DNA of 64,000 nt from contig JAVZHQ010000002.1 in the NCBI GenBank assembly GCA_038998335.1, positions 64,001-128,000 on the forward strand, given 5' to 3'. Below are positions 7,200 through 53,600 of this stretch, in pieces. This stretch comes from Candidatus Aenigmatarchaeota archaeon. GTDB taxonomy: Archaea; Aenigmatarchaeota; Aenigmatarchaeia; CG10238-14; SCSR01. Under the pieces are notes generated by a model. The model did not search any database. It was not told the DNA's origin and saw only the letters and a list, made by a program, of their open reading frames with translations. A program made the translations under genes and the position numbers. Every line of letters begins with the position of its first letter. The stretch's first letter is position 1.

Positions 7200-7223
7200 T
7201 AAATGTGCATGTAAGTATACAAG
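7200..7223. promoter_or_regulatory. Palindromic operator-like motif, copy 2 (TGCAT-N6-ATACA)
   Basis: TAAATGTGCATGTAAGTATACAAG in the divergent gap between the HTH regulator and tRNA-Ile. Confidence 0.55.
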
Positions 7224-7316
7224 GGCCTATAGCTCAGCCTGGTTAGAGCAATCGCCTTATATGGCTCGCTTTCGTGAGAAAGCGATAGGTCGAGGGTTCA
7301 AATCCCTCTAGGCCCA
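7223..7316 (+). tRNA. tRNA-Ile(UAU) with 19-nt intron at 37/38 (7262-7280)
   Basis: Cloverleaf: acceptor GGGCCTA/TAGGCCC, anticodon stem ATCGC/GCGAT, loop CT-TAT-A|A, T-arm GAGGG-TTCAAAT-CCCTC; central helix CTTA/TGAG and 3-nt bulge AA|A. Confidence 0.88.
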
Positions 7317-49854: not shown

Positions 49855-50277
49855 ATGAGTCTAACCTTCAACACAGAAACCATAAGACTTATAACACTCT
49901 TTGAAAACCTTACCGGAGCTAGAGTCAAGGATTGTGTAATAGATAAAGAAAGCAACACTGTTTATTTTCTGGTAGAAGAAGGAATGATTGGTATAGCTAT
50001 AGGAAAGAATGGAAGCGTTGTTAAAAATGCAGAAAAGTTAATAGGAAAAAACATTAAAATATTTGAATTTTCAAAAGACCTGAAAACTTTTGTAAAGAAA
50101 CTTATACCACAAGCTAATGAAATAAGAATAAAGAATGAAAACAACTCGATAATAGTTGAAGTAAAAGTAGACAAGAAAGAAAAGGCTTTAGTTATAGGAA
50201 GGGATGAGAAAAACTTAAAAATATTAAAGCAATTATTTCAAAGAAACCATAAAGTTAATGATTTAGTTGTAAGGTGA
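49855..50277 (+). CDS. nusA: Archaeal NusA (KH domains)
   Basis: 'AIGKNG' KH motif; operon position. Confidence 0.93.
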
Positions 50278-50281
50278 AAAA

Positions 50282-50707
50282 ATGGGAAGAGGCTTATTTG
50301 CAGCAAGGAAATTGAAAAAAACAAGAAAAAAAATGAAGTGGAAAGATATACACTACAAAAGAAGAATCTTGCAACTATGGAAAAAAGATCCTTTGGAAGG
50401 AGCCCCCCAAGCTAGAGGAATAGTTATCGATAAGCGTGGAGTAGAGCAAAGAAAACCAGCTTCAGGATTAATTAAGGCTGTAAGAGTTCAATTACTTAAA
50501 AATAACGTTCAAGTTACTGCTCATGTTCCTGGAGAAGGAGCGATAGACATAATTAACGAGCATGATGAGGTACTTATAGAAAGTATAGGCGGTGCGCAAG
50601 GCGGGCCAAAAGGAAGTATGTGGGGAATTAAGTATAAAGTTGTTAAGGTAAACGGAGTTGCTTTAAGTGAAATTTTAGCTGGAAAGAAACAAAAGCCTAC
50701 TAGGTAA
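50282..50707 (+). CDS. rps12: 30S ribosomal protein uS12 (divergent decoding motifs)
   Basis: 'GLFAARKL', '[13 protein letters not shown]', 'VRVQLLKN', 'EHDEVLI'; operon position. Confidence 0.96.
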
Positions 50708-50712
50708 AAAAT

Positions 50713-51312
50713 ATGGAATTAAAAATTTTTGGAAAATGGAGCACAGAAGGAGTAGAAGTTAAAGACCCTGGTTTAGCAAAATACATAAACCTCAAGCCAG
50801 TTATCGTCCCTCGCTCAGGAGGGAAGTATGCCAAACAACAATTTCATAAATCAAAAATGAATATTGTTGAAAGATTTATGAACAAACTTATGGTTCCTGG
50901 TCATAGAGGAAAAAAGCATGTTACTAGTTCTGGTCATTGTGTGGGAAAAACTTCTGTTCAGTACAAAATTGTTAAAGAAGTTTTTGAAAGAATCGAACAA
51001 ATAACTAAAAAAAATCCTATAGAAGTTTTAGTCGGAGCCATAGAAAACGCTGCCTTGAGAGAAGAAATAACCTCTTATCAGCTTGGAGGAATAATCGTTA
51101 GAAGAGCTGTGGTTACAAGCCCGCAGAGAAGGGTTGATTTAGCTTTAAGAAACATAGTCCAAGCAGCTTATAGAAAAGCTTTTGGGAAGAAGGAAAATAT
51201 GATTGATGCTTTGGTAAATGAAATAATTGCTGCATACAATAACGACGCTAGCAAAAGTGAAGCAATAAAGGAAAAGGAAAGGATAGAAAGGGAGGCAGAA
51301 GGTGCAAGATGA
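50713..51312 (+). CDS. rps7: 30S ribosomal protein uS7
   Basis: 'IVERFMNKLM', 'AIENAALREE', 'SPQRRVDLALR'. Confidence 0.97.
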   Translation: MELKIFGKWSTEGVEVKDPGLAKYINLKPVIVPRSGGKYAKQQFHKSKMNIVERFMNKLMVPGHRGKKHVTSSGHCVGKTSVQYKIVKEVFERIEQITKKNPIEVLVGAIENAALREEITSYQLGGIIVRRAVVTSPQRRVDLALRNIVQAAYRKAFGKKENMIDALVNEIIAAYNNDASKSEAIKEKERIEREAEGAR

Positions 51313-51407
51313 ATTTTTGAACCATTAATCTTTAAAACCATTTCTAAAGGATTAATAATAAATATGCGACTTTCCAAAATTTAGAAATTAACTTAAAGGT
51401 GAAAAAA

Positions 51408-53600
51408 ATGGCAAAGAAAGAGATGATTGAAAGGATCAAAGAAGCGATGAAAGATCCAGCAAGAATAAGAAATGTTGCAACAAGCTCTCATGTACATCAT
51501 GGGAAAACTGCTTTAACTGATAACTTGATGGCTGGAGCAGGAATGTTAGCAGAAGAAATGGCAGGAAAAGTAATGTACACTTGGTTTGATGAACAAGAGA
51601 GAAGAAGACAACTAACAATTTATGGAGCAAACGTTTCCATGGTTCATGAGTATGAAGGTAAAGATTATTTAATTAACTTAGTCGATACTCCTGGTCATGT
51701 GGATTTTGGTGGTGATGTTACTAGAGCAATGCGTGCTGTTGACGGCACAATAGTTCTTGTATGCGCAGTTGAGGGAATAATGCCGCAAACAGAAACAGTT
51801 TTCAGACAAGCTTTGAGAGAATACGTTAAGCCAGTTTTATTCATTAACAAGACCGACAGGCTGATAAAAGAGTTAAAATTATCACCAGAAGACATGCAAA
51901 AAAGGTTTGAAGAAATTATTCGTGATGTTAATATTCTGATTCAAAAGTATGCCCCTGAAGAGTTTAAGAATAAATGGTTAGTAAGCGTTGCAAATGGTAG
52001 TGTAGCGTTTGGTTCAGCAACTAAAAGATGGGCTATTTCTATCCCATACATGCAAAAAACTGGAATAACTTTTAAGGAGATTATTGAACTCACATTAGCT
52101 GGAAAGGAAGATGAGCTAGCAAAAAAAGCTCCTCTACATCAAGTTGTTTTAGACATGATTATTAAACATTTACCAAATCCTTTAGAAGCTCAGAGGTATA
52201 GGCTATCAAAAATTTGGAAAGGAGATTTAGAATCAGAAATAGGGAAGCAAATGTTAGCATGCGATGCAAACGGAAGACTTGCTGCAATAGTCACAAAAGT
52301 AGTTCCTGACCCACATGTAGGTTTTGTTGCAACAGCAAGAATTTTCTCAGGAAAAGTTTACAAAGGAAAGGACGTTTACTTGATAAACCAGCATAAACAA
52401 GAAAAAATTCAGCAAGTTGCTGTTTACAAAGGAATATTGAGAATTCCTGTTGAAGAAGTTACTGCAGGAAACATCGCTGCAATAGTTGGAATTCCTGAAG
52501 CTTTCACAGGAGAAACTGTTTGTGAACCAGACAATATAATAGAACCTTTTGAAGAAATAAAGCATCTGTTTGAGCCTGTAGTGACAAAAGCTATTGAGCC
52601 AAAAAATCCTATGGAATTACCAAAGCTTGTTGAAGCTTTAAAGAGAATTGGAAAGGAGGATGCTGTTTTGCAAGTGAAAATAAATCAAGAAACAGGAGAA
52701 TACCTTGTTTCTGGCTTAGGTGAACTTCATCTGGAGGCAAAAGTTGAGAATAAGCTTAAAGAAATGGGAATAGAAGTTGAGATGAGTAAGCCTATAGTTG
52801 TTTATAGAGAAACAATTTTTGATAAGTCTCCTACTATTGAAGGAAAAAGCCCAAACAAGCATAATAGATTTTACATAATGGTTGAACCTTTGGAAGAAAA
52901 AATATACCAAGCTATGAAAGAAGGAGAAATTCCAAGCACAGTAGAAGTTAAAACTAAAATGTTAGACTTGTTCAAAAAACTTTCTAACTTAGGAATGGAT
53001 TATGACGAGGCAAAAAGAATAGTTGTAATTTACAATAAAAACATGTTTATCGACTTAACAAAAGGTGTGCAATTTATGAATGAAGTTATAGAAATGGTTA
53101 AAGATGCTTTTAAGGAAGTTATGGATGATGGACCATTAGCAAGAGAACCTTGCACTAAAGTGAAAGTTAAGCTTGTAGATGCTGAGCTTCATGAAGACCC
53201 TGTGCATAGAGGCCCAGGACAAATAATGCCTGCTGTAAGGTATGCTATAAGGCAGGGAATGCTTAAAGCTAACGCTACCTTGCTTGAACCTAAACAAATA
53301 ATAAGGATTGATGTACCTACTGAGCTAATGGGCGAGGCTACAAGAGAAGTTGAGAACAGAAGAGGGCAAATTTTAGACATGAAAGAAGAGAGGGGGGCAA
53401 GCGTTATAATAGCAAAGGTTCCTGTTTCTGACATGTTTGGTTTTGATGCTAGCTTAAAATCTGCAACCTCAGGAAGAGGATTTTATAGCTTGATAGAAAC
53501 AGTTTTTGAAAAATTACCGAATGAACTAAGAGACGAAGTAATAAAAAGCATAAGGAAGAGAAAAGGTCTACCTGAAGAAATTCCTAAACCTGAAGTATAG
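51408..53600 (+). CDS. fusA: Elongation factor 2
   Basis: 'HVHHGKT', DTPGHVDF, NKTD, diphthamide loop 'HEDPVHRGPGQ'. Confidence 0.98.
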   Translation: MAKKEMIERIKEAMKDPARIRNVATSSHVHHGKTALTDNLMAGAGMLAEEMAGKVMYTWFDEQERRRQLTIYGANVSMVHEYEGKDYLINLVDTPGHVDFGGDVTRAMRAVDGTIVLVCAVEGIMPQTETVFRQALREYVKPVLFINKTDRLIKELKLSPEDMQKRFEEIIRDVNILIQKYAPEEFKNKWLVSVANGSVAFGSATKRWAISIPYMQKTGITFKEIIELTLAGKEDELAKKAPLHQVVLDMIIKHLPNPLEAQRYRLSKIWKGDLESEIGKQMLACDANGRLAAIVTKVVPDPHVGFVATARIFSGKVYKGKDVYLINQHKQEKIQQVAVYKGILRIPVEEVTAGNIAAIVGIPEAFTGETVCEPDNIIEPFEEIKHLFEPVVTKAIEPKNPMELPKLVEALKRIGKEDAVLQVKINQETGEYLVSGLGELHLEAKVENKLKEMGIEVEMSKPIVVYRETIFDKSPTIEGKSPNKHNRFYIMVEPLEEKIYQAMKEGEIPSTVEVKTKMLDLFKKLSNLGMDYDEAKRIVVIYNKNMFIDLTKGVQFMNEVIEMVKDAFKEVMDDGPLAREPCTKVKVKLVDAELHEDPVHRGPGQIMPAVRYAIRQGMLKANATLLEPKQIIRIDVPTELMGEATREVENRRGQILDMKEERGASVIIAKVPVSDMFGFDASLKSATSGRGFYSLIETVFEKLPNELRDEVIKSIRKRKGLPEEIPKPEV

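Follow-up and report, generated by a model that had tools for sequence, protein, structure and literature searches.

The gene for ribosomal protein uS12 in a 64,000-nucleotide stretch of DNA from an Aenigmatarchaeota archaeon (the window) encodes a protein whose two decoding-centre loops depart from the wording usual in archaea and eukaryotes. This raised the questions of whether the protein is a genuine uS12, whether the change is peculiar to this genome, and what it may mean for decoding.

The uS12 gene and its two loops

The product of the gene (Table 1) passed the cut-off of the Ribosom_S12_S23 family profile PF00164 (118.7 bits, cut-off 22.3) and those of the two archaeal/eukaryotic equivalog models TIGR00982 (191.8 against 140.2) and NF003254 (196.4 against 196), and it could be aligned without gaps and over its full length with the nearest solved uS12, that of Pyrococcus (4v6u/6swc set; E 4e-50). 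The gene order around it, RpoA'' - L30e - NusA(KH) - uS12 - uS7 - aEF2, is the standard one. The open reading frame, the equivalog scores and the operon slot bear out the reading of an earlier first-pass annotation, made from the sequence alone, that this uS12 is intact and in its operon, and the protein is a genuine uS12 of an Aenigmatarchaeota archaeon. When the genome (1,009,365 bases in 9 contigs) was searched with the PF00164 profile, this gene was the single match, and the second, canonical uS12 that the first-pass annotation had named as a refutation was not found by this profile in an assembly that is 90.4% complete.

Table 1. Coordinates of the features discussed (window positions unless a contig or locus is named)
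Feature	Position	Strand	Remarks
NusA-like KH-domain gene	49855..50277	+	immediately 5' of uS12, operon context
uS12 (rps12)	50282..50707	+	141-aa ORF; sole copy detected in genome
uS12 loop 1, [11 protein letters not shown]	50444..50476	+	residues 55-65; human RPS23 numbering E58-K68
uS12 loop 2, GSMWGI	50612..50629	+	residues 111-116; E. coli K87-V92 equivalent
uS7 gene	50713..51312	+	immediately 3' of uS12, operon context
aEF2 gene	51399..53600	+	operon context
tRNA read as tRNA-Ile(UAU)	7223..7316	+	19-nt intron after position 37; Rfam tRNA 65 bits; folded by eye
16S rRNA of the same genome	G000:C1:407647-409193 (locus L092 1501-3047)		1547 nt

The usual archaeal and eukaryotic wording of the two loops is EAKQPNSAIRK and GDIPGV, and the Pyrococcus protein reads EAKQPNSGMRK and GDIPGI at the same places. 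Compared with canonical uS12 (RPS23, PF00164, TIGR00982; Pyrococcus), with which it shares its length without gaps and its operon slot, the protein studied here carries in loop 1 the changes A59Q, K60R, Q61K, N63A, A65G, I66L and R67I (human RPS23 numbering) and retains P62, S64 and K68, so that PNSA reads PASG, with Pro and Ser kept and Asn and Ala replaced; Gly65 is also found in the otherwise canonical loop of Pyrococcus. In loop 2, Asp88 is replaced by Ser, Leu/Ile89 by Met and Pro90 by Trp (E. coli numbering), both glycines are retained, and the Pro90-Gly91 turn is Trp-Gly. The Pro and Ser of PNSA (Pro62 and Ser64) reportedly touch the codon-anticodon helix. The RPS23 numbering follows the K60, P62 and R67 of PMC8570412, PMC4396695 and PMC13568678, and that of loop 2 the D88, L89 and P90 of PMC3347575; the equivalents of E. 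coli R49 and P41 were deduced by counting from these residues.

The open reading frame and the Pyrococcus alignment confirmed that both usual wordings are replaced, as the first-pass annotation had reported for positions 50447-50626, which span both loops. Its statement that uS12 has lost both motifs holds in that the loops are remodelled, and it is overstated in view of the five residues retained. The same motifs recur in three other genomes of the same genus, and canonical loops are present in none of the best 120 database proteins (79-100% identical); therefore, a sequencing error does not account for them.

Distribution and coupling of the loop changes

The GTDB phylum sample of Aenigmatarchaeota comprised 201 genomes, 195 of them with a uS12 match, and 100 genomes, drawn from the 32 family codes available, were read. 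The loop-1 Arg and the loop-2 Asp were both absent from 95 of these 100, 94 having a residue other than Arg at position 67 together with Ser or Thr for Asp, and one (G042) having Lys at the Asp site. One of the remaining genomes (G020) combined Arg59 and Ala67 with Asp, and four had Arg67 with Asp, three of them from family f8, with the loops EAMQPNSALRK and GDIPGV (G058, G047 and G033; loci L078, L071 and L377), and one from family f31, with EAKQPNSGLRK and GDLSTV. The remodelling is thus carried by nearly all members of the phylum that were read and is not special to the genome studied here. Family f11 is intermediate, with EQKQPHSGMIK and either GSIPGV or GSLGGV. Arg60 occurs in part of the phylum, including the clade of the window (EQRKP), and Lys in most of it (EQKQP), and the Pro site is occupied by various residues (W in 48 of the 100 genomes, V in 22, H in 14, P in 7, S in 4, G in 3 and A in 2). 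Near-fixation is seen at Gln59, Gly65 and Ser/Thr88, and Met89 is frequent, among families that share only about 55-65% identity elsewhere in uS12. Taken together, these results indicate that the remodelled loops are a conserved lineage trait, nearly phylum-wide, and neither a peculiarity nor a defect of one genome, and we are highly confident in describing the protein as a uS12 with lineage-wide alternative loops.

The placement of family f8 was analyzed with two trees. In a 16S rRNA tree built by a quick method from 41 rows, f8 was nested beside f16 (SH-aLRT 95), and in a uS12 tree of 113 rows and 138 columns, the loops included, it lay outside all other uS12 proteins of the phylum (support 87). 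The f8 family, the only one of the phylum with near-canonical uS12, has Met at position 60, a Lys that has been called nearly invariant.

Outside the phylum, the loops are EKRQPYSGMIK and GSIPGV in Nanopusillus acidilobi and Nanoarchaeota YN1, with the changes of loop 1 and of Asp and with Pro retained. Most of the 50 genomes read from a Nanoarchaeota-phylum sample (146 genomes with a match) are canonical, and seven of the 50 have [RK]KQPHSGLIK with Asp retained, position 59 being Arg in six and Lys in one. Iainarchaeum-labelled genomes combine a canonical loop 1 with GDLWG, that is, Trp for Pro with Asp retained. In a sample of 80 loci from GTDB species, 51 had fully canonical loops, and these 51 come from Hadarchaeota, methanogens, Thermoplasmata, Bathyarchaeia, Thermoprotei and other groups; the sample is biased because one of the two patterns used to collect it covered the loop-2 stretch and allowed the variant residues there. 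Most of the best 150 cluster representatives (50% identity), eukaryotes included, read EAKQPNSAIRK and GDIPGV. Some uS12 genes outside the window are about 650 codons long and hold an insertion of about 505 residues (P0121, P0129, P0133, P0136, P0138, P0130, P0151 and P0261), which one source labels 'intein/homing endonuclease'. It is placed exactly after Lys68 of loop 1, the next residue being Cys, and is common to Aenigmatarchaeota-type and canonical uS12; a second insertion site, after QPN, is present in P0200 and P0218.

The coupling of positions 59, 67 and 88 was analyzed in a pool, weighted towards Aenigmatarchaeota, of 494 unique uS12 sequences in which every position was aligned. Arg67 occurred with loop-2 Asp in 239 of the sequences and with Cys in one; Arg or Lys at position 59, in proteins lacking Arg67, occurred with Asp in eight and with Ser/Thr in two; and proteins with no basic residue at either position had Ser/Thr in 243 cases, Lys in one and Asp in none (0 of 244), the relatives among these sequences being non-independent and representing only about five or six changes that arose separately. 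Where Arg and Asp are lost, Gln59 appears and Asn63 is replaced as well. One module (A), the replacement of a charge network, comprises Ala to Gln at 59, Asn to Ala, His or Ser at 63, Arg to Ile, Thr, Val or Leu at 67, and loop-2 Asp to Ser or Thr. The change of loop-2 Pro to Trp (or Val or His) is a separate module (B) because each is found alone in other lineages, Ser with Pro retained in Nanopusillus, Nanoarchaeota YN1 and family f11, and Asp with Trp in the Iainarchaeum-labelled genomes.

The fact that Asp was never found without a basic partner at 67 or 59 suggests a charge pair that is lost together or re-made from position 59. Asp88 is described as buried in a pocket formed by nucleotides 522-528 of 16S rRNA and S12 residues 44-51 (PMC3347575), and because the latter contain the Arg, the covariation and this description from a review together point to Arg67 and Asp as a probable buried charge pair lost as a unit. 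Asp would normally sit in the pocket of loop 1 and 16S 522-528, paired with Arg67, and loss of the Arg would entail loss of the Asp unless a basic residue arose at position 59. The triad 59/67/88 thus behaves as one unit.

Decoding by the remodelled loops

Several of the residues replaced here are ones that the literature calls universal, in keeping with the first-pass annotation's description of the motifs as near-universal. Asp88 is stated to be present in 'all known S12 homologues' (PMC3347575), a universality that fails for this protein, with its Ser, and for the 94 of 100 phylum genomes with Ser or Thr. According to the same source, Asp88 mutants of E. coli were unobtainable, and changes of the neighbours K87, L89, P90, G91 and R93 lead to streptomycin resistance or dependence. 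PNSA is called universally conserved in PMC8177701. The Lys of KQPNSA (K60) is described as 'nearly invariant' in PMC8570412, with Arg only in (hyper)thermophilic archaea and as an isolated change, and its replacement by Arg is reported there to reduce readthrough and to be hyperaccurate in eukaryotes; neither DPANN nor Nanoarchae- occurs as a word in the main text of that paper. The Arg60 of the protein studied here comes together with other changes, and the 16S rRNA of the genome has a G+C content of 0.564 compared with 0.331 for the genome as a whole, a contrast of no use as an indicator of growth temperature. For position 67, a review associates RPS23 R67K with reduced fidelity (PMC13568678). 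With respect to Pro90, bulky substitutions including an engineered P90W are reported to make Thermus streptomycin-dependent, to distort h44 at A1492 and to stall the ternary complex before GTPase activation; P90W requires several base changes and never arose spontaneously, and P41, K43, P44 and N45 are given as further streptomycin-dependence sites (PMC3884664). By alignment with this list of sites, the equivalents of P90W, N45A and P41Q are all present here.

The altered positions (E. coli P41, K42, N45, D88, L89 and P90) are sites of restrictive or streptomycin-dependent bacterial mutants, which, together with the gain in accuracy from K60R in eukaryotes, is what leads to a reading in terms of stricter decoding. 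The remodelled loops may shift the balance of 30S domain closure and so give stricter and slower tRNA selection, with internal compensation keeping the ribosome viable, and such decoding might be affordable for a slow grower that has a 1-Mb genome and makes few tRNA modifications. We put forward stricter decoding as such only tentatively, its direction being extrapolated from bacteria and eukaryotes. Since P90W is harmful in Thermus, its natural carriers must be compensated, and that compensation could restore ordinary decoding. A further point against stricter decoding is family f8, which belongs to the same phylum, has no TiaS and carries G915 in its 16S rRNA, and has near-canonical loops, so that remodelled loops are not required by that background. 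The confinement of K60R to part of the phylum also speaks against it. As the best explanation overall we lean, by a little, towards a functional uS12 in which the proofreading face was rebuilt in a coupled manner and decoding was retuned, probably to be stricter.

The main rival of this explanation is neutral compensation, in which the Arg-Asp pair and the Pro would have disappeared through compensated, near-neutral drift from a fast-evolving DPANN lineage of small population size, which would now decode normally, locked into its new state. The variability of the Pro site across the phylum (W/V/H/S/A/G/P) is consistent with such drift, as are the separation of the two modules in other DPANN-labelled genomes, the viability of family f8 with canonical loops, and the changes of the same 16S rRNA at other archaeal-consensus positions (U957C, A1201C, A1499C and A915G/U20C). 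However, drift does not readily explain the near-fixation of Gln59, Gly65 and Ser/Thr88 and the frequent Met89 when uS12 identity between families has fallen so far, and few sites of the ribosome tolerate mutation as poorly as those affected (PMC3347575, PMC3884664). We therefore consider drift rather unlikely, and less so than the other alternatives.

AUA decoding, 16S rRNA and the meaning of the variant

The first-pass annotation had related the loops to an unusual UAU decoding and to loss of tiaS. More specifically, once TiaS was lost, the loops and the reading of AUA by tRNA-Ile(UAU) might have evolved together, a stricter wobble check preventing U34 from reading AUG. The background of this idea holds in the genome studied here, in which no match to the TiaS_FLD profile (PF08489) was found and a tRNA read as tRNA-Ile(UAU) is present (Table 1). 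Once spliced, this tRNA resembles the tRNA-Ile(GAU) of the genome; ARAGORN called it Stop(tta) or Ser(aga) with an intron, contrary to our reading, but its anticodon calls are unreliable for intron-bearing tRNAs, and the anticodon was read by eye. There is also a precedent in Mycoplasma mobile, whose ribosome is reported to reject AUG for tRNA-Ile(UAU), with S12 and 16S rRNA named as candidates (PMC3575796), and every lineage with remodelled loops considered here was without a TiaS match. The profile, which as a control matched exactly the four archaeal reference genomes, also had a match in each of two bins, one Hadarchaeum and one Bathyarchaeota. It was found in none of the 201 phylum genomes, all eight f8 genomes with their canonical loops included, and in none of eight other DPANN-labelled genomes, two of which branch inside Aenigmatarchaeota by uS12 and three of which (two Woesearchaeota- and one Altiarchaeales-labelled) have canonical uS12. 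These TiaS-less genomes with canonical uS12 indicate that cells can do without both TiaS and remodelled loops; loss of TiaS is at most a permissive background for the remodelling. A correlation between TiaS and the state of uS12 was thus rejected as specific, no TiaS match being found in the 201 phylum genomes whatever their loop type, and co-evolution with UAU decoding appears improbable.

The first-pass annotation had also proposed co-evolution with 16S rRNA and compensating changes in its helices. The 16S rRNA of the genome, with positions numbered from primer sites, has a canonical 530 loop in h18, canonical A1492/A1493 and canonical C1054, and no compensating change was found in its h18, h44 and h34. 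The pairs beside loop 2, A1409-U1491 and G1410-C1490, are identical in f8 and a Hadarchaeum bin, and because these canonical-uS12 relatives share them, no compensation in h44 is seen; compensating changes in h18 and h44 are thus not borne out. Compared with the upper-case positions of the Rfam archaeal consensus, the molecule carries U20C, A915G, U957C, A1201C and A1499C. Of the universal primer sites, 907/926 and 1492 each have one mismatch in this 16S rRNA, which would bias amplicon surveys against the group. The 16S genes of G020, G045, G024 and G091 (loci L348-L351) span 1644-1693 nt compared with 1547 nt here, an excess length that points to insertions or introns in some relatives' rRNA genes.

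The one phylum-typical change near the decoding site is A915G, here with U20C, in a base triple of the central pseudoknot near the streptomycin/S12 region, and it might have driven the changes of uS12 or compensated them. U20 hydrogen-bonds A915 in the Thermus 30S subunit (PMC3278836; also PMC3914948), and the exact G915 site pattern was present in at least 119 stretches; among the matches listed, 67 were named Aenigmat(arch)aeota, 37 were unnamed archaea and 15 had other names. Two of the differently named genomes listed carry a uS12 that branches inside Aenigmatarchaeota in the uS12 tree, and two more are bins with several 16S genes. In the phylum sample, G915 was found in 81 of 201 genomes and the canonical site in 15 of 201, two of these 15 looking foreign. 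However, position 915 is discordant with uS12 in both directions, G915 coexisting with canonical uS12 in family f8 (G058 and G033; the f8 genome G180 also has G915) and A915 with remodelled uS12 in five genomes (G148, G165, G052, G117 and G151), and it tracks position 20 instead, A915 occurring with U20 in 9 of 9 cases and G915 with U20 in 12 and with C20 in 6 of 18. Thus, A915G is near a phylum signature that covaries with position 20, and its link to uS12 is not strict; as a correlate of uS12 it was rejected despite a real association at the level of the phylum. Co-evolution with 16S rRNA is therefore not specifically supported, and a causal role of A915G seems even more improbable than one of UAU decoding. 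The variants proved common and largely uncorrelated with any rRNA or tRNA change, the outcome that the first-pass annotation had set against its own proposal.

As for A1499C, it was also rejected as a correlate: 113 titled matches included 38 Woesearchaeota-, 25 'Methanosarcinales'- and 21 Nanoarchaeota-labelled ones and only four from Aenigmatarchaeota, and a complete Woesearchaeota genome combines C1499 with canonical uS12. The 25 metagenome-assembled genomes labelled 'uncultured Methanosarcinales' that carry this DPANN-typical site (e.g. L095, L098 and L102) may have wrong labels or mis-binned contigs. Likewise, the Hadarchaeum bin G207, with five separate 16S matches, and the Bathyarchaeota bin G208, with two, are mixed bins, and the contigs in them that bear G915 are likely to be foreign.

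Selection for insensitivity to streptomycin-like aminoglycosides released by neighbouring microbes is very improbable. It is true that K42(K60)R, the K87-R93 loop and the U13-U20-A915 triple coincide with classical sites of streptomycin resistance (PMC3347575, PMC3884664), but no sign of exposure was seen, and the Asp/Arg module corresponds to no known resistance change. Streptomycin in any case has little effect on archaeal ribosomes. That the gene is a decaying or accessory copy, with a canonical uS12 in the unassembled 10% of a genome whose completeness is 90.4% only, can be dismissed as scarcely credible, given the intact frame, the equivalog cut-offs passed, the canonical operon slot, an S12 match in 195 of 201 phylum genomes that is single in nearly all (two matches in four) and remodelled in 95 of the 100 copies read.

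When the variant is compared with known systems, the restrictive and streptomycin-dependent S12 alleles obtained in the laboratory in Thermus and E. coli (P90W, P90L, N45, P41 and K43; PMC3884664) concern the same positions, including Pro90 to Trp; in contrast, the changes found here are natural, fixed in a phylum, archaeal, without any drug and joined by the loss of Asp88 and Arg49. The natural K60R of (hyper)thermophilic archaea (PMC8570412) likewise places Arg at the Lys of KQPNSA, as in the clade of the window, but is described there as isolated in a conserved protein, whereas here it is one of nine changes. Mycoplasma mobile, as described in PMC3575796, also lacks a C34-modifying enzyme, has a UAU anticodon, and has a proposed ribosomal adaptation with S12 as a candidate; it is, however, a bacterium in which that source does not pin down the ribosomal change, whereas here the change in uS12 is seen, with no specific correlation to UAU decoding. 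No earlier description of decoding-loop variants of Aenigmarchaeota or DPANN uS12 was found by title or abstract in the literature searched, within which the phylum-wide variant is apparently undescribed so far.

Four residues that textbooks present as invariant in the decoding centre are involved, namely Asp88 and Pro90 and, in the PNSA loop, Asn and Arg; almost any change to them in laboratory organisms is lethal or brings drug dependence or disease. A phylum in which such residues are replaced in a coupled and conserved manner, with intermediates in related lineages, represents a natural experiment on which parts of the proofreading face are required, and it offers ready-made sets of alleles (module A, module B, or both) for tests of the trade-off between accuracy and speed. 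Published statements on the universality of uS12 residues are corrected accordingly, and in annotation the remodelled proteins should be treated as ordinary uS12 and not flagged as defective. More speculatively, and in our opinion with a low probability, naturally 'restrictive' ribosomes might exist in Aenigmatarchaeota and, to some extent, in Nanopusillus-type Nanoarchaeota and Iainarchaeota; in these ribosomes the loss of the Asp88/Arg49 pair and the change of Pro90 to Trp would make tRNA selection more stringent and so let cells with stripped-down tRNA modification avoid wobble misreading. If this were so, uS12 would achieve at the level of protein what tRNA modification achieves in other organisms, in cells with no agmatidine that read AUA via a UAU anticodon.
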